Source of the DNA: a virus
Lineage: Duplodnaviria > Heunggongvirae > Uroviricota > Caudoviricetes
Virus record (IMG/VR): IMGVR_UViG_3300037067_005176
Span: 125,081-189,080 of that record
DNA: 64,000 nucleotides
Reading direction: 5' to 3' (one strand)
Shown: positions 23,615 to 47,218 of the stretch, piece by piece
Position numbering within the stretch: the first letter of the stretch is position 1
Layout of the letters: each line of letters opens with the position of its first letter
The notes under the pieces: generated by a model
Told to the model about the DNA's origin: nothing
The model's database searches: none
What the model saw: the letters and a program-made list of their open reading frames with translations, nothing else
Made by a program: the position numbers and the translations under genes

Positions 23615-23925
23615 TTCACAACATCGATGGAATTGAACAAGCTTTAAGACTTCATCGTGGATACAAATATTTTAAACGCAAATCAATTCACCGACTTGTT
23701 GCAAAGGCATATTGTGAAGAGTGGTTTGATGGTTGTGAGATTCACCACTTGGATCATAACAAGCTTAACAATGACATTTCTAACTTAGTATGTATTTCCA
23801 AATCAGAACATAAAAAATTCCATGCCAACGACATCCAAACGACGATAAAAGAAGTTGGTAAGTCAAGACGCAAGAAGAAAACTCAGAAGCATTGTTTCAA
23901 CAAGAAGTTCGTTATAAACAAATAA
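23596..23925 (+). pseudogene. HNH endonuclease C-terminal fragment (..HRLVAKAY..GCEIHHLDHNKLNNDISNL..SEHKKFHA)
   Basis: Open frame without start codon, beginning where the TnpB frame ends. HNH_3-type motif. Confidence 0.5.
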
Positions 23926-23930
23926 CAAAA

Positions 23931-23963
23931 AAGAGGAATCGTTTTGATTCCTCTTTTCGTTTT
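23931..23963 (+). terminator. Rho-independent terminator (gaggaatcGTTTTgattcctc + TTTTCGTTTT)
   Basis: 8-bp stem plus T-rich tail. Confidence 0.65.
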
Positions 23964-24083
23964 GACGATTGTAAGTTTTCTTTTTGTCTTTACGAATCCT
24001 AGTCATTAAGGTTCGTCCGTTGTTTGACTCACTTATACGATCTTGTCGTAAATAGTGATCAAGATTTTTCTTTTGGTCCTGGA

Positions 24084-24480
24084 TCATATATTTTTCCTTT
24101 TATAGATTCTTCCTAATACCCACCCTAAATTAACATAACTATCAACATCATTTTTATTTATAAATTTTGATGCCTTGTTATTTGTTATCCAAACTTTATT
24201 ACATTGAACTTTTGAAATATTATTTCGCCATTCGCTTGTCAATTTACGTCCTGTCATCGATGCTTTTGACACTTGTGATATAATCTTTTTAGTTTCTTCT
24301 GTATGGTTAAGATGTATTGCTCCATGCCCACCAATACACATGTTATATGTATCGTTTTGATTTATAAAAGCTTTTGTGATTATTGAGTGTTCTCTATTAA
24401 AAGCTTTGCATTTTCAATCAAACCATTCCAAAATCTCTTTCTTGAAATTTTCTTTACGATACTTCTTTATTGATTGTTTA
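24084..24480 (-). pseudogene. GIY-YIG endonuclease pseudogene (copy of 6540..7358 with in-frame stop: ..KENFKKEILEWFD*KCKAFNREHS..)
   Basis: Minus-strand translation aligns with 6540..7358 (KENFKKEILEWFDWRCEALNREAE) but has a stop and lacks the N-terminal domain. NUMOD3-like C-terminus at 24084..24341. Confidence 0.5.
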
Positions 24481-24492
24481 ACTTTATTTTAT

Positions 24493-24519
24493 AGAGGTTA
24501 TTAGTAGTAACCTCTTTTA
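24493..24519. terminator. Stem-loop terminator (agaggttaTTAGTAGtaacctct with T/A-rich flanks), usable in either direction
   Basis: Perfect 8-bp stem. + strand tail tttatatctattt. Confidence 0.4.
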
Positions 24520-24603
24520 TATCTATTTATAATTGCAGTAAGATTATTCCAAGAATAAAAATAATCAAATGACTACTAATCATCCGTCCTGCATCAATAT
24601 TTA

Positions 24604-24885
24604 TTATTTAGTTAATTCGTCAATTTCTTTAGAAATCATTTCGCATTTAGTGTTATAATCATATATAATCATAGCGATTTCACACCAAGAATAGAAGTCA
24701 GTAATATAAATGGATGCATCTTCTTGTGAATTAAGAAGATGCACATACTCTTCCATCATAAACTTGAAGTTCTCAATCCCAATGCGAGAAAGAGCCATTT
24801 TTTCCGAATCAGTCAAACTGATCGCGTGAGCCTCGTACTCTTCTAATGGGCGTGACTTCTTAAGTCTTTTTTCATCATGAAACAT
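24604..24885 (-). CDS. Hypothetical protein (93 aa), second gene of a leftward two-gene unit
   Basis: RBS ggagagaatgaATG. Overlap-coupled to the upstream 58-aa ORF. Confidence 0.45.
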   Translation of the reverse strand: MFHDEKRLKKSRPLEEYEAHAISLTDSEKMALSRIGIENFKFMMEEYVHLLNSQEDASIYITDFYSWCEIAMIIYDYNTKCEMISKEIDELTK

Positions 24886-24896
24886 TCATTCTCTCC

Positions 24897-25073
24897 TTAG
24901 GGACAAGTCCAAGTGTTGTATGCTTTTTCGCTAATCACCTTGTCTGTGCGAAGCGCATCTGTAAAACTGTTCCGAGCTTCACTTCTCATAACAGCATCAC
25001 CTTTCGGTAAATTTTTATGAGATTCCCTAAAGAGAGAAACAACTTCTTTCTTTGTCAATTGTTTTCTGGACAT
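24897..25073 (-). CDS. Small hypothetical protein (58 aa, MSRKQLTKKEVVSLFRESHKNLPKGDAV...)
   Basis: ORF below the track cutoff, read by hand. Divergent from the 25373 gene. Confidence 0.35.
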   Translation of the reverse strand: MSRKQLTKKEVVSLFRESHKNLPKGDAVMRSEARNSFTDALRTDKVISEKAYNTWTCP

Positions 25074-25303
25074 AAAAACTCCGGTTAAAATTGAACTTCA
25101 AATATAATAATAATCTAGAGATCTGTCAATCGAACTTTTTCTCCCGGAATTCGTGAAATTCCTTAAGTTATGAGATTTTAGTGAGAAAAATATGAAAAAC
25201 TATTGACGGCAGAGATTTTTAGTTGTATATTTGATTCATAAGGTTGGTAAACAACTGATTCGTTAAGAAAAAGGTTTATAAGAAAAAAGTTCAAATAAAC
25301 CAT

Positions 25304-25332
25304 TGACAAACGAAAAACAGATTGTTATATTA
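25304..25332 (+). promoter_or_regulatory. Consensus sigma70-like promoter TTGACA-N17-TATATT
   Basis: TTGACA 25304-25309, 17-nt spacer, TATATT 25327-25332, followed by RBS aaaaggag and ATG 25373. Confidence 0.6.
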
Positions 25333-25372
25333 ACCACATAACTGATAACAAACCACTCGAAAAGGAGTCAAC

Positions 25373-25900
25373 ATGACCACTGCAACAAAGTCCACCGCCG
25401 CCAAGTCTTCTTCCAAGTCCAAGAAGGCTGCTGAACCAAAAACCGAAGCTGTTGTGCTGCCTGTTGCTGCACCTGCAGTTGAAGTTGAAGGCTCTGCACC
25501 AATTGCAGAGCCCATTGCCGAAAAGACCAAGAAGGTTTTGACACCTTCCGACAAGATCGCCCTGAAGGTTGTTTCCGCAATCCGTTCCGATCGCTCGCAG
25601 TTCAACAAGGCCTTCGAACTTTCCGAAGACGGCAATACCGCGACCCATACTTTCTCCGCAAAGCTTGGATCCGCAATTGTTACCTTCGGCCGTCATGAAG
25701 TTGCAGGCAAGAAGACCCGCGAGACAATCGCCCGTGCATTCATCCATGTCAAGCCCGAAGGTTCCGAGAAGCATCTCGAAATCACCGGACCAATGGCTGC
25801 CCGTGCATGGTACGCAATGAACCATGCTCCTAAGGGTCACATCAAGTCCGAACCTGATGCAGAAGCTGTTGCCGCAGCTGAAGCCGCTCTCGGCCTGTAA
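25373..25900 (+). CDS. GC-rich (about 50% vs about 35% locally) protein with Lys/Ala/Ser-rich N-terminal tail and a conserved about 115-aa core ending ..EAALGL; paralog of 26023..26373
   Basis: Strong C-ending codon bias. The many overlapping ORFs on both strands here are GC artefacts. The core aligns with 26023..26373 (SDKIALKVV../..EALIALGLE). Confidence 0.6.
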   Translation: MTTATKSTAAKSSSKSKKAAEPKTEAVVLPVAAPAVEVEGSAPIAEPIAEKTKKVLTPSDKIALKVVSAIRSDRSQFNKAFELSEDGNTATHTFSAKLGSAIVTFGRHEVAGKKTRETIARAFIHVKPEGSEKHLEITGPMAARAWYAMNHAPKGHIKSEPDAEAVAAAEAALGL

Positions 25901-26022
25901 TCAAATCGTTACACAGACTGAATGGGTTTAGGGTGTGGGTTTTATCGCCCACGTAATTCCTGGGAGGACTCGATTGCCTCCCTCAGTCCTATCAAATCAA
26001 AACCTCTAAAGGAGAATAGTGT

Positions 26023-26373
26023 ATGTCCGTAAAGTTCACCCTTTCCGATAAGATTGCAGTCGCTGTAATTGAAAGCTTGCGTGCAGGCGTTCAACTTCGG
26101 CCAACGATCGGAAAGACAGCTCATGGAAATATGAATGGGTTTATGTTTACAAATGAAAAGAATGCAACAATTCATATTCAAGCCTTCACAAAGGAAGGCG
26201 GAAAAAATGCAAAGTTTGTTATCGCAATAACTCCAGCTGAAGGTCGCACCACGGAAATTTTTGGTAAACATGCTTCGCTCGCATGGAAGATAATCAATAA
26301 TCCAACGACTTCAAGACGTGAAGTTGATATTGAAACTTTAAACGAAGCACTTATAGCTCTTGGTTTAGAATAA
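26023..26373 (+). CDS. Paralog of the 25373 protein core (116 aa, ends ..EALIALGLE)
   Basis: Shared motifs SDKIA[LV].V[VI]..R and C-terminal A..ALGL. RBS aaaggag. Confidence 0.55.
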   Translation: MSVKFTLSDKIAVAVIESLRAGVQLRPTIGKTAHGNMNGFMFTNEKNATIHIQAFTKEGGKNAKFVIAITPAEGRTTEIFGKHASLAWKIINNPTTSRREVDIETLNEALIALGLE

Positions 26374-26410
26374 TATTATATTCAATCCTAGCAAGAAAAA
26401 AATAAAAATT

Positions 26411-26449
26411 AAAAGTTCTAGATAACTTCAAAAATCCAGAACTTTTTTA
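26411..26449 (+). terminator. Rho-independent terminator (aaaagttctag...ccagaactttt + T6)
   Basis: 7/8-bp stem plus T6. Confidence 0.45.
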
Positions 26450-26490
26450 TATTTAAATTTCCATTAAAACAATAAACAAGGAAGGTTAAA

Positions 26491-26676
26491 ATGGTCACTT
26501 TCACAGTACTCGCATATTCAGTTGATTCTACAGGTCGTATTTATGGTGAGGCAAAGCCGAAGCATGTTTGGACGAAGGAGTTAATGGAATCCTACCGAGG
26601 GATGCGTTATGTGTCAATGATTTTTGAAAATGAGAACGGAAAGTCTAAACTTATTTGGGAAAATCGTCGGGGTTAA
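26491..26676 (+). CDS. Small hypothetical protein (61 aa)
   Basis: RBS aaggaagg. Confidence 0.4.
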   Translation: MVTFTVLAYSVDSTGRIYGEAKPKHVWTKELMESYRGMRYVSMIFENENGKSKLIWENRRG

Positions 26677-26961
26677 TTATGACAAAGAAAACGGTGATTG
26701 TTAATAAGATACCGTTTTCCTAGTCAAGTGTTCATCTCGTGGTTATAATGTACAAAATTTGAACACAAAGATTTGGATGAAAGTTTGTGTTAGAAACGAA
26801 AAGAACTTGAATTACATTTAAGAGGTATATGATGCAATGATTATGAAGGACGTCCTTAGCGCAAAGTAACTTGTCCGCCCAGAGAGCGATGAATCCGTTG
26901 AAACTTTTGGTGAAGCGGAAGAACTTATTAAATGCCTCTTTAACAAACTGGGAATTTGTAA

Positions 26962-27489
26962 ATGATTAAAATTATATCCGATGGTGAAACTGGTGTTGGA
27001 CAAGCTGCCCTAGCTGCGGCTTTTCTATGTGATACTGAATATATTGGCTATGTCAGGGCCGGTTATATAACATGTAACGGCCCATGCGAAAAATTAAAGC
27101 ATTTAAATTGTCAAACTTTAGAAACTGATCGTCTTCGTGACTGTGCTCAAAAGTGCATTGATGAATGTAATGGTGTTCTTATTTTCCGTTCGGGTGAATG
27201 CTCAAAGATTGAAGACAATGTTAAGTCTTTAATAGGTGAGTCTCGCCCTGTTATGGAATTTGATTTTCTAAAGCCAATTGATCCAAGATCAATTACAGTT
27301 TGGCTCCTCACTGAAGGAATCACAAAGCTGTATGTGACTGGACGCAACGATACAATGGGTTTAGATATCTTTTATAATAAAGCGTTACCTTTGATGACTC
27401 ATATTATAAAAGATATTAACAACGAGCTTGAAAGAAAAGAGCTTGACAACAAAAGAAAAGCAAAAGCAAAAGCTGAAGTGAAAAAGTAA
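26962..27489 (+). CDS. SLOG-superfamily protein (YpsA / putative MoCo-carrier-like; ISDGETGVGQAALAAA)
   Basis: N-terminal GxTGVxxAAL motif characteristic of the YpsA/MoCo_carrier SLOG family. Confidence 0.45.
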   Translation: MIKIISDGETGVGQAALAAAFLCDTEYIGYVRAGYITCNGPCEKLKHLNCQTLETDRLRDCAQKCIDECNGVLIFRSGECSKIEDNVKSLIGESRPVMEFDFLKPIDPRSITVWLLTEGITKLYVTGRNDTMGLDIFYNKALPLMTHIIKDINNELERKELDNKRKAKAKAEVKK

Positions 27490-27527
27490 TTCGGCTTGTT
27501 TATAAGTTACGACGCAGGAGTGATAAT

Positions 27528-28328
27528 ATGTTAAAAGGTTTTGTGATTTCGGATATTCACATTGATCATATTGGTAATGGAAGTCCAAGCAGAGACAAGA
27601 TGCTTCGGTATCTTGAACCAAAGTTATGTCCCGCTGATGTAGTTTTTATTGGCGGAGATATTTCAAATAGCGGCTCTGCGTTCTCAAAGCTCGTCGATAC
27701 ACTTAGTGAGTTATATCCTAAGGTTGTATATTGTCTTGGTAATCATGATTACGCAGTGCATCCAAACAAGAATGAAACTTCTTTTCAAAAAGTTGAGCGT
27801 TCTGTTAATGGTGTAAAATCTATCAACTCCGTATTTCTTAATGGTGGGCATCATGATCTTTCAGACTTCACAAGAGTCGGAGGAACTATGGGTGCTTATG
27901 ATATGTCATATTCTGAAAAGCATTTTGGTTTATCATATGATCACATGTTAAGAGAATGGAATAATTGGTATGATGGTCGTTATTGGGATTTGAACGGGAT
28001 GACATACACAGAATTTATGAACCGTGAATTTGATAAGATTGATGATTTGATAAATGATAAGCAGTGCAATATAATGCTTACACATATCGGTCCATTTGCT
28101 TGGGGAATACCACCAAAGTTTCATAACGCACAGACTGGATTCTTTTACTTTGATGGGAAAAGATATCTTGATGCGATGCCAAACGATTCTGTTTGGATTT
28201 TTGGCCATACTCACGATCAAAAAATTCTTGACCTTGGCAACGTTCGTCTTCTTTGCAATCCTCTTGGGTACATTGGAGAAAGCAGAACAACGATTCCAAA
28301 AGAAGAGTTTTTATTTGATATAAAATAA
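27528..28328 (+). CDS. Metallophosphoesterase (calcineurin-like; GDISNSG..GNHDY..GHTHD)
   Basis: Ordered MPP motifs. RBS gcaggag. Confidence 0.55.
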   Translation: MLKGFVISDIHIDHIGNGSPSRDKMLRYLEPKLCPADVVFIGGDISNSGSAFSKLVDTLSELYPKVVYCLGNHDYAVHPNKNETSFQKVERSVNGVKSINSVFLNGGHHDLSDFTRVGGTMGAYDMSYSEKHFGLSYDHMLREWNNWYDGRYWDLNGMTYTEFMNREFDKIDDLINDKQCNIMLTHIGPFAWGIPPKFHNAQTGFFYFDGKRYLDAMPNDSVWIFGHTHDQKILDLGNVRLLCNPLGYIGESRTTIPKEEFLFDIK

Positions 28329-28343
28329 ACAAAGAAGGTATAA

Positions 28344-28802
28344 ATGATAGTATATGTTGATATGGATAATGTGATGTGTGATTTTAATCGCGCAAAGAAA
28401 TTAGCAATTAAAAACACTCCTGATAATGCGTATCCTCATAGTCAAGTAGATTTTTTTAGACAACTTGAAGAAATTGATGGAGCTATTGATGCTTTGATTG
28501 ACTTATGCGAGGCTGGAATTGACGTTTATATTCTTACTGCACCTTCGACATTGAATCCAATGAGTTATATGGAAAAGATGCTTTGGGTCCGTGATCATCT
28601 TGGACAATGGTGGGTTGAGCGGTTAATTATTAGTAAGCATAAACATCTTAATGTTGGCGATTACCTTGTTGATGATATGGCAGGAGGGTGTGGACAAGAA
28701 CAATTTATAGGCACTCTCCTTCAATTCGGAAGTAAGCAATATCCAAATTGGATCACTGTAAAAGAATTTCTTATTCACAAAAAACAAAGTGAGGATGTAT
28801 GA
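28344..28802 (+). CDS. 5'(3')-deoxyribonucleotidase (NT5C-family HAD; VYVDMDNVMCDF)
   Basis: DMDxV motif I and overall size typical of NT5C. Confidence 0.5.
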   Translation: MIVYVDMDNVMCDFNRAKKLAIKNTPDNAYPHSQVDFFRQLEEIDGAIDALIDLCEAGIDVYILTAPSTLNPMSYMEKMLWVRDHLGQWWVERLIISKHKHLNVGDYLVDDMAGGCGQEQFIGTLLQFGSKQYPNWITVKEFLIHKKQSEDV

Positions 28803-29173
28803 GTTTATATAATATGCTATTTGGGGTGAATGCTTTATCCCCTGTGCTTTTGAAAATCATCAATCTTGAAATGGGAATTATACCAAGATTCAGAGATTGC
28901 TATATTGACGGCGAATACATTATTGTTCATACACGGTCGGGTGGTGGAAACAGAGAATGGCTTGAAGAAGAAAATAATATGCTTGAAGCAAATGAAAATT
29001 ATTCGCATGATGAAGACGATGATTTTGATTGTACTTATGCGAATTTTTATTTCAACATTCCAAGTGAATATGCTGAAGATATTAATGCCCTTGTAAATAA
29101 AGATGAAACTTATAAACCTTCAGAGAAGTGGGCAAAACTATTTGAAGGATTGGAAAAGAAAGATGAAAATTGA
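28799..29173 (+). CDS. Acidic hypothetical protein (124 aa)
   Basis: ATGA-overlap start. RBS gtgagg. Confidence 0.45.
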   Translation: MSLYNMLFGVNALSPVLLKIINLEMGIIPRFRDCYIDGEYIIVHTRSGGGNREWLEEENNMLEANENYSHDEDDDFDCTYANFYFNIPSEYAEDINALVNKDETYKPSEKWAKLFEGLEKKDEN

Positions 29174-29242
29174 ATATAAAATTGTTAATGCAAATGATGA
29201 AACTAAAGTACTTTTTGAAGATGGCTTCGGAAAGGAGATTGA

Positions 29243-29395
29243 ATGAAATGCGGAAAATGTAATATTGGTAAACTTAAATATAATGAGAAAGGTATTTATT
29301 TTTGGTATACTTGTAATAATTGTGATTATGAAACACGCAAAGAAGTAAATACAATAAATAAAAGACTTATAAAAGAGAAAACTTATGGGACGTAA
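29243..29395 (+). CDS. Small zinc-ribbon protein (50 aa; CGKC...CNNCDYE)
   Basis: RBS aaaggag 5 nt upstream. Below the ORF-track cutoff. Same architecture as the - strand zinc-ribbon family. Confidence 0.4.
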   Translation: MKCGKCNIGKLKYNEKGIYFWYTCNNCDYETRKEVNTINKRLIKEKTYGT

Positions 29396-30380
29396 ACTTG
29401 CATCAATTCAGCGCATTTGGAAAATTGAACCAATTGAAGGAGCTGACAGAATTGAATTAGTTCGTGTAATGGGCTGGCAGTGTATAGCAAAGAAAGAAGA
29501 GTTCGAAAAGTATGATCTATGTGTATACATCGAAATTGACTCTGTATGCCCAAAAGAAGATGAACGATTTGCTATGCTTGCTTCAACCAATTGGAAGGTT
29601 AAAACAAGAAAGATGAAAAATACTCTCTCGCAAGGTATTGCATTACCACTTTCTTTATTCGGCTGGACTGATGCTGATGTTACACTTGAAGAGGATGTTT
29701 CTGAAAAGCTAGGTATTAAACTTTTTGAAAATTATGAAACATTTAATGCAGTCGAAGCAAAAGGTGGATTTCCAGGATTCATTCGTAAGACTGACCAAGA
29801 AAGATCAGCCAATTTAAGTCAAAAAACTTATGAAAATTATAGCAAAATGAAATTTGAAGTTACTGAAAAATGCGAAGGATCTAGTTCCACTTGGTTTTTA
29901 CGCGATAATGAATTCTTTGCATGTTCTCGCAATCTTGTGATGAGACTTATTGACGGTTCTCGTTGGAAATATTTAAACTACAAATACAATCTTGAAAATA
30001 AGTTAAAAACTTATGGAAAGAATATTGCTATTCAAGCGGAAATATTAGGGCCAGGAATACAGAAAAATTATTATGGTTTAAGTTCTTATGAGATTAAAAT
30101 ATTTGATGTGTTTGATATTGATGCACAAAGATATTTAAATCCTGATGAAAGATATAAAGTTCTTGAAGAGCTAGGTCTTATGCATATTCATGTTCCAATT
30201 GTGCATAAAGAATTTTCGTTTGAAGGAATAACTCATGATGAGTTGATGAAATTAGCCAACGGAAAATCTATGATTTCTTCAAACAAGATTCGTGAAGGTT
30301 TGGTTTATAAGTGCATATCAAATGGAGATTATCACTTTAAAACCGTTGATCCAATTTACTTGCTCAAAGAAGATCAATGA
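29385..30380 (+). CDS. RNA-ligase-family nucleotidyltransferase-like protein (variant motif I EKCEGSS, motif IV EGLVYK, motif V FKTVD) with N-terminal extra domain
   Basis: EGxVxK motif IV and K-x-[DE]-G motif I in appropriate order and spacing. Confidence 0.4.
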   Translation: MGRKLASIQRIWKIEPIEGADRIELVRVMGWQCIAKKEEFEKYDLCVYIEIDSVCPKEDERFAMLASTNWKVKTRKMKNTLSQGIALPLSLFGWTDADVTLEEDVSEKLGIKLFENYETFNAVEAKGGFPGFIRKTDQERSANLSQKTYENYSKMKFEVTEKCEGSSSTWFLRDNEFFACSRNLVMRLIDGSRWKYLNYKYNLENKLKTYGKNIAIQAEILGPGIQKNYYGLSSYEIKIFDVFDIDAQRYLNPDERYKVLEELGLMHIHVPIVHKEFSFEGITHDELMKLANGKSMISSNKIREGLVYKCISNGDYHFKTVDPIYLLKEDQ

Positions 30381-30637
30381 ACTACCAAAGAATATATGAT
30401 GCAATAAAAAGAACTTCTATTGCTAATAAAGGCCGTAAAAATACAATTGAATCGAATAAGCGAATAAGCGACTCTATAATTGGAAAGCACAAAGGCTTAA
30501 AAAATCCAAACTTTGGAAAGTATAATACGGATTCACCAAACTATGGAAGAAGATGGTTTCATAATAAAATCGGTGAACGCGTATACAAAAATCCGGATGA
30601 AGTTGATCATAACATTTGGATTTTTGGTATGAAATGA
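30377..30637 (+). pseudogene. Internally deleted HNH endonuclease relic (MNYQRIYDAI... lacks the HNH catalytic motif)
   Basis: N- and C-termini match 14152..14757 but the middle (ERHHIIPK...EHYLCH) is absent. Confidence 0.45.
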
Positions 30638-30700
30638 CATAAATTTTCACTATAGTTTATTTTTCGTGAAATACCGCGAGAAAAAAAATCATTTTTACCA

Positions 30701-30729
30701 TTGCAAAGTGGTAAAATAGTTTGTATATT
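30701..30729 (+). promoter_or_regulatory. sigma70-like promoter TTGCAA-N17-TATATT within a repeated promoter-leader cassette
   Basis: Near-identical to the cassette at 48069-48192. Confidence 0.5.
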
Positions 30730-30770
30730 GTATCTATCGAAAGGCAACAAACTCCAAAGAGGATACTAAA

Positions 30771-31151
30771 ATGATTAGGTTTTTCTATAATGGTTTTAAA
30801 ATTGATGATGACAAAAAGTTGTATAAAGTATACTTTACACCATGCACCAATGGAACGATTCGTGTTACATCTGAAGATTATATAGCCTTCCCAAAAGCAA
30901 CCCGCGATCAATTTGTAGTCGTTAATAATACTAACATTATGATTGATTATTTTGAGAATGAATATTTTGAAATTTCAACGACCCATGAGTTGTTCAAATT
31001 TGCAAAAATTGCTTTGTTACAAAATTCCCTTAAATATTTTACTAGCCAATATAAGAAATGCCTAAAATATTCTTGGGAAAAGAAAGGTGAGTTTGTCCAA
31101 GCCAAAATAAATGAGTATCAAGAACAAATAAAAGCTTTGGAGAACGCATGA
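30771..31151 (+). CDS. Hypothetical protein (126 aa)
   Basis: RBS aaagagga downstream of the repeated promoter cassette. Confidence 0.5.
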   Translation: MIRFFYNGFKIDDDKKLYKVYFTPCTNGTIRVTSEDYIAFPKATRDQFVVVNNTNIMIDYFENEYFEISTTHELFKFAKIALLQNSLKYFTSQYKKCLKYSWEKKGEFVQAKINEYQEQIKALENA

Positions 31152-31348
31152 AGATAAATGACTTTATGAAAGAACTTGAAATTGAAATCCAAAATGCTAA
31201 AATTGATGAAAATTTATTGTATGTTTTGGTTCGTATCAGTGATCAAAAACATATTTCTCCTGCAATGCCAATGAAAGATTCTGTGATTCAATGGATTAAG
31301 AAAAACACCGAAGAAATTTATTTCAAGCTATTTTATGAGGAGGATTAA
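31148..31348 (+). CDS. Hypothetical protein (66 aa)
   Basis: ATGA overlap with upstream gene. Confidence 0.4.
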   Translation: MKINDFMKELEIEIQNAKIDENLLYVLVRISDQKHISPAMPMKDSVIQWIKKNTEEIYFKLFYEED

Positions 31349-31548
31349 TGAAGCCCATTGGTTTGACTAAGAAAGGCTGCGCGTGGGATTTTATTGATAT
31401 TCGCGCATTTAAAAATTCTAATGATAGACATTCAACGTCGGGAGATCGTTCCGCACGTAAAACATTACGACGAATCGTTCGTTCGTTAAAGAGATCGGAA
31501 AAGCAAAAATTTATAACACAACGTCTTAACGAGGAGATGAATGAATGA
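31348..31548 (+). CDS. Small basic protein (66 aa, Arg/Lys-rich)
   Basis: TAATG overlap. RBS gaggagg. Confidence 0.4.
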   Translation: MKPIGLTKKGCAWDFIDIRAFKNSNDRHSTSGDRSARKTLRRIVRSLKRSEKQKFITQRLNEEMNE

Positions 31549-31661
31549 ACTAAATATTTTAAAACTAAAAATCTGTAAATTCAAGTATTAGCAATGTATG
31601 CTATAATCAAGTTCAAAATTTCAAATCGTAAAACATAATCACTTAAATAGGAGACATAAAT

Positions 31662-32852
31662 ATGTCAATTTATAAATTATTCTCAATTGTAGGAATTACA
31701 ATTTTAATTTTTGCAGTGCTTTTCACTCTTCCAAGAATTATTGAAAACATTGATACAACAGAATATAAAATCAAGCAAGCAGCAATATCTGGTGATATGT
31801 CTTGTCATAATGAATCTGGGTGGTTTTGGCAAAGTTTAGGTAATGTTGTAACATACGACAAAACCGGTACTTTTTATTTTTCTGAAGAAAATATTGATGG
31901 TGGCGAAGGCGAAGACGCTGATCCATTGCATGCTACATTCCAAGGTAATTCCACAGGAAAGATTAGTGGTTATCTTAAATATAGATTGCCTTCAAAATGT
32001 GATAATCAGTTATCACTGAATTCTGAATATAAGAATAAAGAGTCTGTTCGTATGGATTTAATTCGAAATGCAATTTCAACTGCTATTGGTCAAGCAGGGC
32101 CATTGTTCACTGCTGAAGAAGCAAATATTGATCGTCGTCCAGAGTTTACAAAAATTATTCGAGATATTCTTGAAGAAGGCGAATTTTTAACAGTTACATC
32201 CGAAGTTAATAGGATTGAAGATAATGATTCAACTAACATTCAAAGGTTTAAAGTAACAAAGATGTGGTTGGATTCGACAGGCAAACGAATGATCACAAAA
32301 CCATCAGTTTTAAAACGTTATGGAATTGAAGTGATTGCTTTGGATATTAAGAAAATTAATTTTGATATCAAGACAAGAGAATTGATGGATGCAAAGAAGA
32401 ATGCTGAACAACAACGAATTGCTTCTAAAGCTTTAGCGGAAAAATCTAAGCAAGACGCTATTACCGAACGTGAACAAGGTAATGCTCGTGTTGCAAAAGC
32501 AAAAGCTGATGAAGAAGTTATTAAAATTGCTGAAGTGACACAAGCTGAAAAACAATTTGAAGTTGCACGATTAGCTGCGGCAACTGCTTTAGAAGATGCA
32601 AAGAAAGTTAAAGCTCAAGGTGAAGCTGAAGCGTATGCTGCACGTGCTAAGGTATCCGCAGGTTTAACACCACAAGAACGTGCAGAATGGGATTTCAAAA
32701 TCGCTGATGCTGTATCACGAAATCTTGCTCAATCTACAGTTAAATGGGTGCCTGAAATTATAATTAGCGGTGAAGGTAAAGGTGGATCAAATCCGTTGGA
32801 TGCTGTAGGCATGAATATGTTGTTAGATGTTGCAAGTAAAATGAAAAAGTAA
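31662..32852 (+). CDS. SPFH/band-7 (stomatin/flotillin-like) membrane protein
   Basis: N-terminal TM helix, then Ala/Glu/Lys-rich coiled-coil region typical of the SPFH family. Confidence 0.5.
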   Translation: MSIYKLFSIVGITILIFAVLFTLPRIIENIDTTEYKIKQAAISGDMSCHNESGWFWQSLGNVVTYDKTGTFYFSEENIDGGEGEDADPLHATFQGNSTGKISGYLKYRLPSKCDNQLSLNSEYKNKESVRMDLIRNAISTAIGQAGPLFTAEEANIDRRPEFTKIIRDILEEGEFLTVTSEVNRIEDNDSTNIQRFKVTKMWLDSTGKRMITKPSVLKRYGIEVIALDIKKINFDIKTRELMDAKKNAEQQRIASKALAEKSKQDAITEREQGNARVAKAKADEEVIKIAEVTQAEKQFEVARLAAATALEDAKKVKAQGEAEAYAARAKVSAGLTPQERAEWDFKIADAVSRNLAQSTVKWVPEIIISGEGKGGSNPLDAVGMNMLLDVASKMKK

Positions 32853-32874
32853 TATTTAAAACAAAGGAATGATT

Positions 32875-33996
32875 ATGAATAAGAAATACAAATTAACTAA
32901 AGAGACTATAGTCATTAGTTCATCAACTTTATATAGAATAAAGGCTCTAATTGACATTCCTTCTTCTAATGTTAAAAAAGGTGATCCGGGTGGATTCATT
33001 GAAAATGAATCCAATCTAAGTCATGAAGGTTCTTGCTGGGTCGCTGATAATGCAAGAGTCTTTGGTGATGCATGGGTCTTTGGTGATGCATGGGTCTTTG
33101 GTTCTGCAAGAGTTTATGGTAATGCAGGTGTCTTTGGTAATGCATTGGTCTTTGGTAATGCATTGGTCTTTGGTAATGCAAAGGTCTTTGGTTCTGCAAA
33201 GGTCTCTGATAATGCAAGAGTCTATGATAATGCATGGGTCTATGGTAATGCAAGAGTTTATGGTTCTGCATGGGTCTCTGGTAATGCAAAGGTCTTTGGT
33301 AATACATGGGTCTATGATAATGCAAGAGTTTATGGTAATACAAATGTCTATGATAATGCAAAGGCCTATGGTGATGCATCGGTCTATGGTGATGCAAAGG
33401 TCTATGGTGATGCATTGGTCTATGATAATGTAAAGGTCGCTGATAATGCAAGAGTCTTTGGTGATGCATGGGTCTTTGGTGATGCATGGGTCTTTGGTTC
33501 TGCAAAGGTCTCTGATTCTGCAAGAGTTTATGGTTCTGCAAGAGTCTCTGGTGATGCAAGAGTCTATGGTTCTGCAAAGGTCGCTGGCAATGCAAATGTC
33601 TTTAGTAATGCAAAGGTCGCTGATAATGCATGGGTCTATGGTAATGCAAGAGTCTCTGATAATGCAAGAGTCTTTGGTAATGCAAAGGTCTATGATAATG
33701 CATTGGTCTATGATAATGCAATAGTCTCTGGTTCTGCAAAGGTATATGGTGATGCAAAGGTCTATGATACTGCAAGAATCTATGATAATGCATTGGTCTT
33801 TGGTAATACATGGGTCTATGGTAATGCATTGGTCTCTGATAATGCACCTGCGGTAGCGAAGTATTATATTGATGGTGAACAGGTTTTATTTGAAGTATTT
33901 AAAGAGCGGACTAAAGAACCTGAAAATGAAGTTGTTATGACCATAAAAGAAATTGAACAAAAACTTGGAATACCTAATTTAAAAATTACACGGTAA
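32875..33996 (+). CDS. Hexapeptide-repeat (left-handed beta-helix-like) protein, family copy 1: conserved 55-aa N-module plus about 45 tandem x-V-[FYS]-[GD]-[NDS]-A repeats
   Basis: Protein periodicity of 6 aa, DNA periodicity of 18 bp. N-terminus MNKKYKLTKET..TLYRIKAL..KKGD.GGFIENESNLSHEG.CWV shared with 43431 and 47016. Confidence 0.65.
   Translation: MNKKYKLTKETIVISSSTLYRIKALIDIPSSNVKKGDPGGFIENESNLSHEGSCWVADNARVFGDAWVFGDAWVFGSARVYGNAGVFGNALVFGNALVFGNAKVFGSAKVSDNARVYDNAWVYGNARVYGSAWVSGNAKVFGNTWVYDNARVYGNTNVYDNAKAYGDASVYGDAKVYGDALVYDNVKVADNARVFGDAWVFGDAWVFGSAKVSDSARVYGSARVSGDARVYGSAKVAGNANVFSNAKVADNAWVYGNARVSDNARVFGNAKVYDNALVYDNAIVSGSAKVYGDAKVYDTARIYDNALVFGNTWVYGNALVSDNAPAVAKYYIDGEQVLFEVFKERTKEPENEVVMTIKEIEQKLGIPNLKITR
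33041..33850 (+). repeat. 18-bp tandem coding repeat array (hexapeptide repeats)
   Basis: Units of the form ggtaatgcaaaggtcttt repeated about 45 times with variation. Confidence 0.7.
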
Positions 33997-34147
33997 AGGA
34001 ATATTTCAAACGCAAAATGGAACATTAGTAACTTATGGCTTTTAACTTACATTTTACACAAAGGTGCATTTAACTATTGCACCTTAATTAAATAAGTTGT
34101 ATATTATATTTAGACAGGTACAACTAAACATTAAAGAGGATAAGTCA

Positions 34148-35059
34148 ATGAAAAAGATAGCCTTAACAATTCTGCTCTTAGCCTTGATAGGATGCAGTTC
34201 GCCATCATCAATAAATGGTGCAACAGAATATTCGTCTCAAGAAACTATGTTGTCATCCCAAGAAGAATACTCTTCTTCTATTGTTGACTTATCCTCTTCA
34301 TCCTCCTCTGATAGCACTCCACAATATTCCTCTTCGGATATTGTTGCAACCATAAGTTCTTCAATCGTTACAATTCAATCAAGTTCATCTATTGTAAGAA
34401 GCAGTAGTTCGTTGATTGCATTAAGTTCTTCAACTGTGTTACCTTCTTCAAGCAGTAGTTCGTTGATTGCATTAAGTTCTTCAACTGTGTTACCTTCTTC
34501 AAGCAGTATCGCCGTATCATCAAGTTCAATAATTGAACCGTCGTCTTCAAGCATTGCAAGTTCTTCTTCACTTGCACAAAGTAGCTCTTCTTATAAGACT
34601 GCTATTTATATGTTTGATCTTGCCTATGCATCAGGAGTAGAGTTTTATAAGACTCATGGAACAAGCACCTCTCCTGATTATGAAATAATCGGTAATGTTA
34701 TTAAAGGGTACGAACATTATTATGGGCTTGATACATTGGTTGTAGGTGAATTAATCGAATCTCTCAACATTGAACGCAGAAGAATGAATACTGCGTCCTC
34801 TTGGGTTAAAGATTTGACATCAGGTGAAATTATATCCGTTGTGTCGGGTGTTATAAATTTACAAGGAACGCCTTTCGTTGCAAGCGCTGTTCATACAGTA
34901 AATAACAAAAGCGTATTTGTTTTAAAGAGAACTAATTGGGGTGATGAAGTATGTTTTTGGTATGACACTAATTCATTGAAGTGGATAGGATCAGGAACGC
35001 AAGCAAGCGATACTAATTTTCAAAATGTATGTGGTAATATAAACGATTATAGTTTTTAG
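34148..35059 (+). CDS. Lipoprotein (lipobox LIGC) with Ser-rich low-complexity region containing an exact 52-bp tandem duplication
   Basis: MKKIALTILLLALIGCSS. 34409-34460 is duplicated at 34461-34512. Confidence 0.55.
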   Translation: MKKIALTILLLALIGCSSPSSINGATEYSSQETMLSSQEEYSSSIVDLSSSSSSDSTPQYSSSDIVATISSSIVTIQSSSSIVRSSSSLIALSSSTVLPSSSSSSLIALSSSTVLPSSSSIAVSSSSIIEPSSSSIASSSSLAQSSSSYKTAIYMFDLAYASGVEFYKTHGTSTSPDYEIIGNVIKGYEHYYGLDTLVVGELIESLNIERRRMNTASSWVKDLTSGEIISVVSGVINLQGTPFVASAVHTVNNKSVFVLKRTNWGDEVCFWYDTNSLKWIGSGTQASDTNFQNVCGNINDYSF

Positions 35060-41729: not shown

Positions 41730-42602
41730 ATGGGAATTATTTATAAGTTAATTTCACCAAGCGGGAAAATTTACATTGGAAAAGCGAATGACTTTGATAC
41801 GCGAATGAAAGGACATCTGTATTGTGCAAATAAAGGTAGAAAGAACGCATTATACGAATCAATAAGAATGCATGGATTTGATTCATTTAAAAAGATTATT
41901 ATTGATTGTGAAGATATTCAAAGCGTTTTAAATGACAAAGAAAAGTTTTGGATAAGCCATTACAAATCAAACGAACGCAAGTTCGGTTATAATATGACTG
42001 TTGGCGGAGATGGTGGCGATACACGAAAAGGATTATCAAATGATAAGTTGAATGAAATTAAACAAAAAGCAAAACAAAGATGTGCTGAAAGAAATCCAAA
42101 TAGAAGTCATTTGATAGAAGTAAAACAAAAAATATCCAAATCGATTTTAAAGCATCTTGAAACATTAAGTGAATCTGAAAAGCAAAGACGATTCAATATG
42201 ACTAAAAGAGGCTTGATTGAATATTATAAATCTGAAAAAGGTAAACTACATGCTTTAAGTACACAAGAAAGAATGAAAGGTGAAAAGAATCCACAATATG
42301 GACTTAAAGGGGAGCTTTCGCCAAATTGGAAAAGACAACAAAGCGAATATTGTAAAAGAAAAGCTTTTGAAACGCATAAAGGAAAACTTGTTTCAGAAAC
42401 TACAAAAAGAAAACAACAATTAAGGTGCGAAGAACGAAACTTGTTAATGAACATAAAGAATAATATTTCAAATGAAATATTTGAAACAAAAAATCTTTTA
42501 AAGTTTTGTGATGAACATAATTTGAATTACAATGTTATGTACAATAAGTTAAAAGGCGCGACATCAAGAACTTTAAAAGAATGGGAATTCATTGAGGTAT
42601 AA
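41730..42602 (+). CDS. GIY-YIG homing endonuclease with NUMOD repeats
   Basis: GIIYKLISPSGKIYIGKAND...R...H. Multiple NPN.S..K.KIS repeats. Confidence 0.75.
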   Translation: MGIIYKLISPSGKIYIGKANDFDTRMKGHLYCANKGRKNALYESIRMHGFDSFKKIIIDCEDIQSVLNDKEKFWISHYKSNERKFGYNMTVGGDGGDTRKGLSNDKLNEIKQKAKQRCAERNPNRSHLIEVKQKISKSILKHLETLSESEKQRRFNMTKRGLIEYYKSEKGKLHALSTQERMKGEKNPQYGLKGELSPNWKRQQSEYCKRKAFETHKGKLVSETTKRKQQLRCEERNLLMNIKNNISNEIFETKNLLKFCDEHNLNYNVMYNKLKGATSRTLKEWEFIEV

Positions 42603-42604: not shown

Positions 42605-42754
42605 ATGTTTAAAGTTGTTATTATCAAATCGTATCTTGATCAAAGAGATCTTGAAAATGCATTGAAGGATGGGTATGAAATTTATCATACAACATCCTGT
42701 CATAGTGAGCATGGGTTTATTGTTTACACACTCAAAAAGGAAAAGACGAAATGA
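42605..42754 (+). CDS. Small hypothetical protein (49 aa)
   Basis: Below the ORF-track cutoff. ATGA overlap with downstream gene. Confidence 0.3.
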   Translation: MFKVVIIKSYLDQRDLENALKDGYEIYHTTSCHSEHGFIVYTLKKEKTK

Positions 42755-43428
42755 ATAAGTATCACATCATCAAAGACATCATAATCCTTATATGCATTAT
42801 ACGCGTTGGGTTTGGTGTTAAAATTGGATATGATTCGGTTCAACATAATAAAGAAAAGCTGAATCACTTTGAAAGATCTTTGACCGAAATGGGAACAGGA
42901 ATCTCAATTGATAACCAAAGAAAGGCAAAGATTCAAAAAGGAACAGAGATGATCCTTTTGAGAAACAAAAAGATACCTTATGAAGTTGCAATGAACTATG
43001 CAGAATGGTTTGTTGATGAAGCTGATAAATATCCCAATGTTGACTTCGTATTGCTTATAGCGATTGCATCACAAGAGTCGGCATTCAATTATAAAGCTTT
43101 AAGTCCAACAGGTGCAAAGGGCTTGATGCAACTTATACCGACTACAGCGATGGATGTATGTGAATATTTAAGAATTAGTTATAATGATACACTTCTATAT
43201 GACCCCAAAACTAATATTAGGTTGGGAGCAAGATATGTTAATCATATGATGACATACTTTAACAATGTTGAGCATACCATATCAGCATATAATGCAGGTC
43301 CTGGCGGAGCAATGAAATATAAGTTATACAAAGCAGGAAAATTAGGAAAGGAATTTGTTGCTGAAGAAAACTTAAAGTATATTCCTGCCGTATTAAACTT
43401 CAAAGCACAATTCGAAAAATTATTATAA
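42751..43428 (+). CDS. Lytic transglycosylase (SLT domain) with N-terminal TM anchor
   Basis: SQESAFNYKALSPTGAKGLMQLIPTTA matches the SLT ES..N...S..GA.GLMQ motif. Confidence 0.65.
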   Translation: MNKYHIIKDIIILICIIRVGFGVKIGYDSVQHNKEKLNHFERSLTEMGTGISIDNQRKAKIQKGTEMILLRNKKIPYEVAMNYAEWFVDEADKYPNVDFVLLIAIASQESAFNYKALSPTGAKGLMQLIPTTAMDVCEYLRISYNDTLLYDPKTNIRLGARYVNHMMTYFNNVEHTISAYNAGPGGAMKYKLYKAGKLGKEFVAEENLKYIPAVLNFKAQFEKLL

Positions 43429-43430: not shown

Positions 43431-44162
43431 ATGAAAAAGAAATATGAATTAACCAAAGAGACCATTATTGTTGGTTCATCAACTCTATATAAAATCAAAG
43501 CTCTGATTGACATTCCTTCTAAAGATATTAAAAAAGGTGATCTAGGTGGATTCATTGAAAATGAATCCAATCTAAGTCATGAAAATACTTGCTGGGTCTA
43601 TGATAATGCATTGGTCTCTGGTTCTGCAAGAGTCTCTGGTAATGCAGGTGTCTCTGGTGATGCATCGGTCTCTGGTAATGCAAAGGTCTATGGTGATGCA
43701 TGGGTCTCTGGTAATGCAGAGGTCTTTGGTAATGCAAAGGTCTTTGGTAATGCAAAGGTCTATGGTGATGCAAAGGTCTATGATGATGCAAGAGTTTATG
43801 GTAATGCAGAGGTCTTTGGTTATGCAAATGTCTTTGGTAATGCAAATGTCTTTGGTAATGCATGGGTCTTTGGTAATGTATGGGTCTCTGATTCTGCAAG
43901 AGTCTCTGGTGATGCAGTTGTCTTTGATTCTGTAAAGGTCTATGGTAATGCAAAGGTCTATGGTAATGCAAAGGTCTATGGTAATGCAAGAGTTTATGGT
44001 TCTGCAAGAGTCTCTGGTAATACAAATGTCTATGGTGATGCAGGTGTCTTTGGTAATGCATTGGTCTATGGTAATGCAAAGGTCTTTGGTAATGCAAAGG
44101 TCTTTGGTAATGCAAAGGTCTATGATAAATTCACATTAACTGATGATGAAATTTTATGCTGA
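43431..44162 (+). CDS. Hexapeptide-repeat protein, family copy 2 (about 30 repeats; C-terminus ..YDKFTLTDDEILC)
   Basis: Same N-module and repeat type as 32875..33996. Confidence 0.65.
   Translation: MKKKYELTKETIIVGSSTLYKIKALIDIPSKDIKKGDLGGFIENESNLSHENTCWVYDNALVSGSARVSGNAGVSGDASVSGNAKVYGDAWVSGNAEVFGNAKVFGNAKVYGDAKVYDDARVYGNAEVFGYANVFGNANVFGNAWVFGNVWVSDSARVSGDAVVFDSVKVYGNAKVYGNAKVYGNARVYGSARVSGNTNVYGDAGVFGNALVYGNAKVFGNAKVFGNAKVYDKFTLTDDEILC
43600..44130 (+). repeat. 18-bp tandem coding repeat array
   Basis: ggtaatgcaaaggtctat-type units. Confidence 0.7.
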
Positions 44163-45500: not shown

Positions 45501-45962
45501 ATGGCTGGATGTTTTGGCGGATCTGACATTGATCGTTGGATGAAACAAAATCTTGATCGTTATCTTGATGAAGGAAAATCAGGAAATCGTGAATTGCTTC
45601 TCAAGCTGTTCAAAGGAAAGAAGTTAATCAAAGAGTTTTGGAAAGATGTTTCAAATGAAGACGATTGTTATCATGTGATGAAAGAAGCACTTATTGAAAT
45701 TCACACTCGTCAGTTGAAGAAATATCTTTACGAGATGACTTCTGGGCCAACTTTGTTTCACACTCCTTATAAAGGTGCTCACACTTTTTATAACCCCGAA
45801 ACTTGCTGCAGTTATTATTGGTCAATTGACAAATATGCTCAACAAAAGATTCTTGAGAAGTGGGCAATGTTACCAAAGACTTTTCACATTAAGAATAAAG
45901 AATTCAACTTGTTACGAATGGGTAAGTACTCAATCGTATGCTCAGACATATATGAACAATAA
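45501..45962 (+). CDS. Hypothetical protein (153 aa)
   Basis: ORF with RBS aaggatt. Confidence 0.45.
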   Translation: MAGCFGGSDIDRWMKQNLDRYLDEGKSGNRELLLKLFKGKKLIKEFWKDVSNEDDCYHVMKEALIEIHTRQLKKYLYEMTSGPTLFHTPYKGAHTFYNPETCCSYYWSIDKYAQQKILEKWAMLPKTFHIKNKEFNLLRMGKYSIVCSDIYEQ

Positions 45963-45984
45963 ACCAAAAAGGAAGAGACACAAA

Positions 45985-47019
45985 ATGAATGAAAAAAAAG
46001 AAAAGACATATTGTGTTTATGTTGGACGCTTTCAGCCTTGCCACTTGGCACATGTGAAGACAATTCAAAATGCTTTAGCGATCGCTGATGAAGTTTGTAT
46101 TATCATCGGCTCTTATCGCCAAACTCCTACGGTGAAAAACCCATGGACGTTTGATATGCGAGAGAAGATGATTCGCGCTTGCTTCAGCATTCAAGACAAT
46201 GAACGAATCAAAGTGGCTCCTATGCGAGACTATCTTTACAACGATAATACTTGGATCACTTCCATGTATGACATCATTGCAAAGATGACAAACAATTCCG
46301 AGAATGTTCAAATCATTGGACATAAAAAGGATAAGTCCACCGAGTATCTTGAATTCTTTCCATCCTGGACTTGGGTCCCTCAACCAAATTTCGACAACAT
46401 CAATGCAACAGACATCCGCATGGATTTGTTTACTCACTGTATGGTGAAAGAAACATCCGGCACTGTGCATCCTGAAGTTGTAAAACTTATTCACAATTGG
46501 AAAGCAGGCAACGAGCTCTTTACGAATCTTGTTGCTGAATTTGAATTTGTGAAGAAGTATCGTGAATCTTGGAAGGTTGCACCATATCCTCCAACATTTG
46601 TTACATCTGATGCAGTATGTGTCAAGTCTGGGCATGTGTTGGTAATCAAGAGAGGTATGAATCCTGGTAAAGGGCTCTTTGCTCTCCCAGGTGGATTTGT
46701 AAATCAAAATGAAGATGTTCGTACAGCATCTATCCGCGAGCTTCGAGAAGAGACTGGAAAATGGATGAGCGTTGATGATCTTGATGAAAAGATTGTTGCA
46801 GAACATGTCTTTGATCATCCTAAACGCGATCCTCGTGGTCGTTGCATTACACATGCGTTTTTGTTCAAGCTTAATGATAAAGGACCTCTTCCTTTAGTTA
46901 AGGCTGACGATGATGCAAGCGATGCAATTTGGATGCCGTTCTCTGATGTGATTGCAAGTGAAGAAAGCTTCTATGCTGATCATGCGCATATAATTTGTTA
47001 TTTTGTTAATAAGCTATGA
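45985..47019 (+). CDS. Bifunctional NMN adenylyltransferase / Nudix hydrolase (NadM-Nudix, NatV-like)
   Basis: N-terminal GRFQPCHLAH (HxGH-type NMNAT motif) and C-terminal Nudix box SIRELREETGKW. RBS aaaggaagag upstream of ATG 45985; the ORF-track start 45775 overlaps the upstream gene. Confidence 0.65.
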   Translation: MNEKKEKTYCVYVGRFQPCHLAHVKTIQNALAIADEVCIIIGSYRQTPTVKNPWTFDMREKMIRACFSIQDNERIKVAPMRDYLYNDNTWITSMYDIIAKMTNNSENVQIIGHKKDKSTEYLEFFPSWTWVPQPNFDNINATDIRMDLFTHCMVKETSGTVHPEVVKLIHNWKAGNELFTNLVAEFEFVKKYRESWKVAPYPPTFVTSDAVCVKSGHVLVIKRGMNPGKGLFALPGGFVNQNEDVRTASIRELREETGKWMSVDDLDEKIVAEHVFDHPKRDPRGRCITHAFLFKLNDKGPLPLVKADDDASDAIWMPFSDVIASEESFYADHAHIICYFVNKL

Positions 47020-47201: not shown

Positions 47202-47218
47202 TCGTCTTTAATTGATTT

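Follow-up and report, generated by a model that had tools for sequence, protein, structure and literature searches.

The closest described relative of the genes treated here is YdcK of Salmonella and E. coli (crystal structures 2F9C and 2PIG; Pfam family PF18836; NCBIfam model NF040481), a protein likewise without an assigned function, which is classed in the left-handed beta-helix (LbH) fold (PMC4671585). We describe four loci, here called c1 to c4, in a stretch of 64,000 nucleotides from a virus of the class Caudoviricetes (IMG/VR record IMGVR_UViG_3300037067_005176, positions 125,081 to 189,080), which at its full length is referred to below as the window and has a GC content of 33%. They have the same N-terminal motif as YdcK (dvkaGtsGGwvdadnvLsqqGdCWiyd in YdcK, nvkkGdpGGfienesnLsheGsCWvad in the window), followed in both cases by hexapeptides of the form x-A-x-[VI]-x-x, and we hold with high confidence, as regards both family identity and architecture, that they are paralogues within a very large YdcK-like beta-solenoid family. 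YdcK is encoded by one chromosomal gene (~326 aa) and its repeats are irregular and diverged, whereas in the window copies the arrays are near-perfect and vary in length, and the tails are copy-specific. The family has been catalogued before and is very common, and the copies here are four new members of it; what is noteworthy is how their arrays evolve, which is probably by recombination and in concert.

The four loci and their family

The loci are as follows, the N-module being the conserved N-terminal part:

c1, 32875-33996, plus strand: complete YdcK-like gene, 373 aa; N-module 32875-33042, 44 in-register hexapeptides 33049-33840, unique 51-aa tail 33841-33993
c2, 43431-44162, plus strand: complete gene, 243 aa; N-module 43431-43598, 29 hexapeptides 43605-44126, tail KFTLTDDEILC
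c3, 63537 to beyond 64000, minus strand: partial gene at the window edge, at least 23.7 units, tail KFTLTDDEILC as in c2
c4, 47016-47201, plus strand: 61-aa open reading frame (ORF), N-module plus DRDVY, without an array

The N-module comprises 56 residues, with a beta-hairpin and a G-x-x-GG...NLS...CW motif. Because c3 lies on the minus strand, inverted relative to c1 and c2, its N-terminus falls beyond base 64000, and the N-modules visible in the window are those of c1, c2 and c4; a preliminary description made from the letters of this stretch had counted c3 among the genes with this N-terminus. The same description had called the N-termini almost identical, which holds for c1 and c4 (51/56 residues) and not for c2, which agrees with those two at only 44/56 and 46/56 positions. 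It had counted about 45, about 30 and at least 25 repeats, near to the 44, 29 and at least 23.7 units found here, and had rightly observed that unit number and C-terminus differ between copies, c1 having a unique tail of its own, and that a fourth copy keeps the N-module alone. Tandem Repeats Finder reports an 18-bp period in 44.4 copies in c1 (77% matches), 29.7 in c2 (80%) and 22.6 in c3 (74%), and the hexapeptide consensus of the arrays is [NDS]-A-x-V-[YFS]-[GD]; position 4 of the unit is Val or Ile in 94/95 cases, and position 2 is Ala in 85/95. Homology between copies begins at the ATG, the 5' flanks being unrelated; between c2 and c3 it stops just past the common stop codon, and that of c4 to c1 and c2 ends directly after CWV. 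The start of c1 lies 22 nt past the stop of an SPFH gene, with AAAGGA upstream of it, that of c2 lies 2 nt past the stop of an SLT transglycosylase gene, and c4 opens with an ATG that overlaps the stop of the preceding NMNAT-Nudix gene (ATGA). A tblastn search of the copies against the 64-kb window found no locus beyond c1 to c4.

Family membership is supported by several profile collections. Against PF18836, the YdcK beta-solenoid repeat (gathering score 30), c1 scores 132.1 bits in 11 stretches, c2 84.2 and the c3 fragment 80.4. PHROG 7964 and PHROG 5070 match full length (E 3.7e-141 and 1.4e-124 for c1, 1.2e-95 and 8.1e-90 for c2), and PHROG 20149 is a 53-position profile of the N-module alone, as in c4. 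A phmmer comparison of c1 with YdcK 2F9C (E 5e-18) gives an alignment that takes in the non-repetitive N-module as well as the repeats, c1 residues 23-56 aligning to 2F9C residues 30-62, and a family profile of 66 sequences searched against the PDB again finds 2F9C (E 1.1e-35), with profile positions 16-60 on 2F9C residues 23-66. The remaining PDB matches of that profile at E<0.1 are all hexapeptide-repeat (LbH-type) or hexapeptide-type proteins, and YdcK (2F9C/2PIG) is the only solved relative found. The NCBIfam equivalog model NF040481 gives 127.3 bits for c1 and 101.2 for c2, and c4 by itself matches it at 1.5e-7; its cut-off of 350 is far from reached, and the window copies are therefore relatives of YdcK, not its equivalents.

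The family is both large and widespread. A search with c2 finds at least 7,734 clusters (90% identity) at E<=1e-10, the N-module is present in 107/120 homologues among the matches listed, and the 56-residue N-module alone recovers at least 6,772 representative clusters at 50% identity. IMG/VR holds 57 loci at 47-71% identity, with ORFs of 76-333 aa that differ in unit number and tail, and reference genomes hold 68, mostly in Bartonella with several copies per genome, the other carriers being Saccharibacteria, Eubacteriales, Acidaminococcaceae and Aggregatibacter; taken together, the spread covers Firmicutes, Proteobacteria (notably Bartonella), Saccharibacteria and many uncultured phages. Searches with a 33-mer common to the three visible N-modules in the metagenome collection, and with a 52-mer in IMG/VR, gave no match. 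Many of the best N-module matches hold two to four N-modules in one polypeptide and may be fused tandem paralogues or read-through gene calls; proteins P0161 (846 aa), P0165 (1146 aa) and P0171 (2114 aa) are concatenated examples. The tails of the window copies are not seen among the homologues listed, which mostly end in a 'W-x-VGCFYGTGEELIKKAY' domain or are tailless, and no Pfam family was found for the tails of c1 and ten homologues. The architecture, which the preliminary description had not recognised as known, is thus that of PF18836, of the NCBIfam YdcK family and of PHROGs 7964, 5070 and 20149, although its remark that it recognised no characterised phage system of this architecture agrees with the literature searched. 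Within phage 'dark matter', the family ranks among the larger blocks.

The names given to homologues vary widely. Deposited phage records call them 'glycerol kinase', 'MFS-type transporter', 'UDP-3-O-(3-hydroxymyristoyl) glucosamine N-acyltransferase' or 'putative acyltransferase', and these look like annotation errors spread from repeat-composition matches. Annotation pipelines mislabel family genes (LpxD, glycerol kinase, MFS transporter, carbonic anhydrase, bactofilin) and also call spurious alternative-frame ORFs within the arrays. Such ORFs run through the arrays of the window at 32996-33595 (minus), 33023-33433 (plus), 43552-44115 (minus), 43579-43935 (plus) and 63704-64000 (minus), reading, for example, MQESLVMHGSLV... 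or HHQRLLQNHK..., and the GenBank record of Sfi19 annotates one, orf129, within orf229. These long ORFs are by-products of a stop-free repeat.

Structure prediction is in keeping with the assignment to a solenoid family. AlphaFold2 was run for c2 from a 66-sequence alignment (predicted local distance difference test, pLDDT, 80) and for c1 from 37 sequences (pLDDT 75), and both models show an N-terminal beta-hairpin and a short helix, then a perfectly regular solenoid with a two-residue strand every six residues (EE----) and pLDDT >90 mid-solenoid; the 51-residue tail of c1 is predicted, at low confidence, as two short helices and two strands. The hexapeptide-repeat beta-solenoid proposed in the preliminary description, which had named the lack of a beta-helix as the result that would speak against it, is therefore what both models give. 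In the models three hexapeptides form one 18-residue turn, with ~15 turns predicted in c1 and ~10 in c2. Ala, Val and Gly point inward, and the exposed positions 1, 3 and 5 carry Asn/Asp/Ser, Lys/Arg/Trp/Leu and Tyr/Phe/Ser, respectively. Since a beta-helix rises by ~4.8 A per turn, the rod would be ~70 A long for 44 units and ~46 A for 29. The proposed left-handedness fared less clearly: homology to YdcK and its fold class speak for it, whereas both models are right-handed, opposite in hand to the YdcK crystal fold class, and fit the right-handed beta-helices of TibA and Ag43 to within 2.4-3.4 A, LbH proteins only to within 10-20 A. We treat the hand of the AlphaFold models as unreliable.

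Evolution of the hexapeptide arrays

The evidence that carries our reading of array evolution comes from silent sites, which were analysed over the 95 units of c1, c2 and c3 with 21 other window genes as the codon reference. The third position is T in codon 1, A in codon 2 and T in codon 5 in 95/95 units each, and T in codon 6 in 93/95. Accordingly, Ala is encoded by GCA in 85/85 units against 45% in other window genes (probability 3e-30), Val by GTC in 79/90 against 7% (1e-78), Gly by GGT in 66/68 against 32% (2e-30), and Lys by AAG in 26/26 against 39% (2e-11). Within the units, nucleotides vary only in codon 1 (nt 1-2), codon 3, codon 5 (nt 2) and codon 6 (nt 2), and the variable nucleotides encode the residues that are exposed in the predicted solenoid. 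At codons 1, 2 and 5 the proportion of synonymous differences (pS) is 0 and that of nonsynonymous differences (pN) is 0.34, 0.10 and 0.29, respectively. The N-modules of the same genes behave in the ordinary way, with synonymous divergence (dS) of 0.17-0.38 and nonsynonymous divergence (dN) of 0.05-0.12, and 8/43 conserved codons differ silently. The contrast between frozen silent sites in the arrays and ordinary ones in the N-modules means that the arrays are younger than the gene duplications, or that they have been homogenised between loci lying 10-30 kb apart.

Further features of the copies are consistent with exchange at the level of the single unit: the rare GTT variant, present in c1, c2 and c3, always stands in the haplotype AGA-GTT-TAT, 11/60 unit types are common to more than one copy, and exact matches of 20-71 bp occur between and within arrays. 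Those in common between c1 or c2 and the inverted c3 measure 41-52 bp, and recombination between them would flip the intervening 20-30 kb.

The same pattern recurs elsewhere in the family. Silent sites are frozen in ~14/33 IMG/VR homologues, the rest having fully randomised ones, and the frozen codon sets differ by lineage (GCT/GTT/GGT, GCA/GTG/GGC, GCT/GTC/GGT and others), from which it follows that arrays have repeatedly been re-amplified in independent lineages. Dual coding by the alternative-frame ORFs was considered as a cause of freezing and set aside, as other lineages freeze other codon sets and half of the homologues are randomised. Changes in length can be seen directly in two pairs of near-identical phages. 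The homologues L031 (273 aa) and L034 (219 aa) are set apart by a single clean indel of 54 aa, or 9 units, that lies between two ENACVY units; elsewhere the gene is 99-100% identical, and its flanks are 98% and 90% identical. The homologues L038 and L039 have identical N-modules and flanks that are 98% identical upstream and, over the aligned parts, 96-97% identical downstream, with heavily diverged arrays that include two 18-aa (3-unit) indels. Such whole-unit indels support the recombination-driven variable cassette suggested in the preliminary description, in so far as silent sites are homogenised within and between the copies here and in-frame whole-unit indels occur in near-identical phages elsewhere; the repeat number, whose constancy across isolates would by that description have spoken against its reading, does vary. 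Frozen silent sites, variable exposed residues and whole-unit indels together suggest that the solenoid surface is a fast-evolving interface.

Genomic setting, proposed role and rival explanations

The window consists of auxiliary genes in one long co-directional block, among them a glycosyltransferase, a HAD/nucleotidyltransferase, two RNA-ligase-like genes, RtcB, an NMNAT-Nudix fusion, a GroES-like gene, GIY-YIG and HNH endonucleases and a QueC-like gene, and no structural genes were identified among the window ORFs scanned. The features other than the four loci are these:

4859-6013: 384-aa ORF with an imperfect 30/60-bp tandem repeat at 5149-5432 (~9 copies, 64-69% matches); no PHROG or Pfam match
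6540-7358 and 41730-42602 (plus), 61274-61600 and 62629-62916 (minus): homing-type endonucleases, namely GIY-YIG with SegE/I-TevI-like domains, HNH, and a weak Endonuclease VII match
19507-20454: RNA ligase
29385-30380: second, weak RNA-ligase-like ORF
31662-32852, plus strand: SPFH/Band_7 membrane protein, directly upstream of c1
34097-35059, plus strand: Ser-rich ORF with a lipobox-like N-terminus (LLLALIGCSS), directly downstream of c1
42751-43428, plus strand: SLT-domain lytic transglycosylase, directly upstream of c2
45775-47019: NMNAT-Nudix fusion
47219-47252, plus strand: hairpin, with inner stem-loop 47219-47246 and T-rich tail 47247-47252 (TTCAGT)
48309-49574: putative CCA-adding tRNA nucleotidyltransferase, by reading of the sequence
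50600-51760: RtcB
54565-55308, minus strand: QueC-like fragment
63116-63556, minus strand: ORF downstream of c3 with G-N-[IV]-T-I-N-G-like repeats

RNA-repair and cofactor genes are densely packed in the window, in which ARAGORN found no tRNA genes over the 64 kb, and the homing-type endonuclease genes are free-standing and scattered among the accessory genes. The hairpin lies 18 nt past the stop of c4, has a folding energy of -19.6 kcal/mol for the folded stretch 47196-47260 (z -5.4) and a run of four T that spans its stem end, and is a likely intrinsic terminator. The Ser-rich ORF contains a perfect 51-bp tandem duplication at 34399-34508 (2.2 copies, 100% matches), has no Pfam, PHROG or PADLOC match, and may be a phage lipoprotein of the superinfection-exclusion type.

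The preliminary description had placed the copies next to envelope-related genes. The SPFH and lytic transglycosylase neighbours are indeed there, with Band_7 and SLT domains found, and we treat them as context only, inferring no functional link to c1 or c2. The 'bactofilin-like partner' at 63116 finds no support: this ORF matches only PHROG 3163 (function unassigned, E 1e-7), with no Pfam match at E<=1 and no PDB or PADLOC relative. Nor is MMKFYAE a shared start of partner genes, as this beginning of two downstream ORFs is an out-of-frame reading of the tail common to c2 and c3, and the true start of the 63116 ORF probably lies downstream of it. An envelope-gene neighbourhood is likewise no family trait, being local to this phage and not recurring around 32 IMG/VR homologues. 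A link between SPFH and hexapeptide genes hinted at by Aeromonas phage Aeh1 (PMC1524935) was also dropped, as Aeh1 is absent among the best 40 of 82 tblastn records, in which the Aeromonas phages are PS and Aer_P220.

Homologues elsewhere, which occur in culturable phages such as Streptococcus phage Sfi19, Lactobacillus phage LfeInf and Xanthomonas phage CP1, sit in other company. The Javan174 homologue lies between cro, in the genetic switch, and RecT/SSB, the Kafunavirus homologue upstream of primase, and the Sfi19 homologue between lysin and helicase. Among 120 ORFs flanking 32 non-redundant IMG/VR homologues, 18 are further family members, and a multi-copy, tandem arrangement is therefore a habit of the family; members of the PHROGs matched here likewise recur as adjacent paralogues in other phages. 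The other recurrent flanking families are Ant anti-repressors, DnaB-like helicases, primase, RuvC and regulators, with no head or tail family in the top 25 recurrent neighbour families of the 32 loci. To judge from this placement, the homologues behave as early accessory genes.

On these grounds we propose the following course of events. The arrays would recombine between 18-bp units, within and between copies, which would change the unit number and keep the silent sites homogenised, while replacement changes would gather at exposed positions; c4 would be a copy that lost its array. The genes would be non-structural accessory genes transcribed with the auxiliary or early block, and the protein would work within the infected cell as a binding or scaffold protein in the form of a rod, probably oligomeric, whose exposed face would be under diversifying pressure at an interface of host-phage conflict, be it counter-defence, host takeover or exclusion. 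Taken as a whole, we believe this to be the best explanation, with somewhat better than even confidence; its functional part, an intracellular rod at a conflict interface, is tentative, and the cytoplasmic location, the oligomeric rod and the arms-race role are all indirect readings. No signal peptide is evident from the sequence in the family copies. Membership of a known anti-phage defence system was also considered and not retained, as no PADLOC model matched c1, c2, c4, the 63116 ORF or four neighbours at E<=0.01. Going further, one might speculate, with little confidence, that YdcK-like arrays are an evolvable phage binding scaffold in which a constant N-module is joined to a solenoid re-dealt by unit recombination and positive selection; both the exposed ladder (positions 1, 3, 5) and the length would, on this doubtful extension, be re-dealt without a dedicated mutator, and the scaffold could conceivably serve in the early-infection capture or decoy of fast-evolving host factors such as defence sensors. 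Were that true, multi-copy sets like the present one would be a repertoire.

Several points weigh against the proposal. The arms-race element draws on nothing besides the replacement-versus-silent contrast and the gene context, and that contrast could partly reflect amplification of an already diverse block. The gene context is itself divided, as c1 stands between the SPFH protein and the Ser-rich lipoprotein candidate and c2 between the SLT enzyme and a small membrane protein, an envelope-gene setting at odds with the general early-region context of the homologues; an envelope-related role is possible in this phage, and is not the general reading. The right-handed models set against a left-handed homologue make the fold detail uncertain, and no function of any family member is described in the literature searched or in annotation. 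Finally, the phage is represented by one assembly, and the short-read contigs of the same run break at the copies, so that the array lengths given here are those of this assembly; no close relative of the phage was found by megablast against phages or with the SPFH neighbour as bait in IMG/VR and metagenomes.

The rival explanations with most to recommend them keep the rod and change its use. A bactofilin-type polymer, in which right-handed beta-helices would join at their ends to build filaments of a cytoskeletal kind inside the infected cell, corresponds to the polymer-forming scaffold of the preliminary description and is unlikely in our estimate, even though c1 and c2 score 39.3 and 33.0 bits against Pfam Bactofilin PF04519 (cut-off 27.9), many homologues match it too, some GenBank phage records use the name 'polymer-forming cytoskeletal protein', and the AlphaFold models fit TibA and Ag43 and not LbH proteins. 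The PF18836 match is far stronger over the same residues, the c3 fragment stays under the bactofilin cut-off at 23.4 bits, and the family profile finds no solved bactofilin in the PDB at E<=1, with YdcK at 1e-35 and LbH proteins after it; the conserved globular N-module cap is foreign to bactofilin architecture, YdcK belongs to the left-handed class, and the hand of a template-free AlphaFold solenoid would be weak evidence, given that contact maps come without hand information. Virion or cell-surface decoration, one of the roles put forward in the preliminary description, would have the rods shown on the capsid, the tail or the envelope of the infected cell, and is improbable. The sequences hold no signal peptide or membrane segment, the surrounding genes scanned (RNA repair, NAD, Nudix, GroES, homing endonucleases) include no structural ones, the homologues of three characterised phages sit in early or replication modules, and the recurrent neighbours at the 32 loci are not head or tail genes; these outweigh the SPFH, lipoprotein, SLT and small membrane-protein genes that flank c1 and c2, and the weak PHROG matches to tail and structural families (E 1e-3 to 1e-5) are repeat-composition matches.

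The other alternatives recede further. That the arrays or copies might be products of repeat mis-assembly, in their lengths or their number, is very improbable: Logan short-read contigs of the same run do break off at the edges of family copies (32903 and 62989), but the frames are intact over 44 and 29 units, the flanks and tails are distinct and unique, the longest exact repeat, at 71 bp, is resolvable by paired 150-nt reads, and many isolate genomes likewise carry this architecture, and in several copies. As an observation on these contigs, L058 and L062 (SRR18595300) are 100% identical to window 56079-62989 and 23707-32903 and end exactly where family copies begin, as do many Bartonella draft contigs, an illustration of how family genes break up short-read assemblies. 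An LbH acyl- or acetyltransferase modifying a sugar, lipid or small molecule would account for the hexapeptide periodicity and for homologue database names such as 'LpxD' and 'carbonic anhydrase/acetyltransferase-like', and there are weak sequence matches to LpxD (1.5e-6), WlbB and LpxA. Yet Pfam Hexapep PF00132 (gathering 27) gives only 18.5, 15.9 and 18.4 bits for c1, c2 and c3, and the NCBIfam transferase models score 10- to 20-fold under their cut-offs. The columns invariant over homologues are only K4, G39, G40, N47 and L48, with no invariant His, Asp, Glu or Cys, the one His per protein lying in the N-module, where many homologues have Gln instead; the arrays are perfectly regular, without insertions, substrate loops or a C-terminal helical domain, and a unit number that varies freely among close relatives is incompatible with a fixed active-site geometry. 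On this evidence the proteins are not enzymes, and we give this alternative hardly any weight. Programmed hypervariation, whether as the target of a diversity-generating retroelement (DGR) or as a slipped-strand, phase-variable contingency locus, is extremely unlikely as well. Variation does fall on a few unit nucleotides, several of them adenines, and the repeats are tandem; against this, every one of the 95 units keeps the adenine at unit position 6, whereas positions with G and T do vary, a pair of template and variable repeats is absent, the larger window ORFs scanned include no reverse transcriptase, and an 18-bp unit keeps the reading frame, with units that are only 74-80% identical and hence poor slippage substrates, so that this is not a frame-shifting contingency repeat.

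Comparison with described systems

Among catalogued protein families, PHROGs 7964, 5070, 20149 and 21367, phage families with no function assigned, are direct full-length matches, from which the window copies differ only in their tails. With the LbH acyltransferases (LpxA, LpxD, GlmU and gamma-carbonic anhydrase; PF00132) they have the periodicity in common and not the catalytic features. Bactofilins resemble them in being beta-helical and triangular in cross-section, and resemble the window models in being right-handed, but consist of a single ~100-aa core with disordered tails, without the conserved N-module or a long hexapeptide array.

The idea of an evolvable binding scaffold can be likened in its logic to variable receptors based on leucine-rich repeats or to DGR targets. 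A further parallel is NeuO of prophage CUS-3, a prophage hexapeptide-repeat protein in which a tandem DNA repeat gives variability and which is described as an active polysialic-acid O-acetyltransferase, with on/off phase variation of O-acetylation (PMC3046976). The window copies are unlike NeuO, as their 18-bp units are the fold itself and the frame is always kept. The repeat behind the phase variation of NeuO is one of 7 nt, located at the 5' end of its gene.

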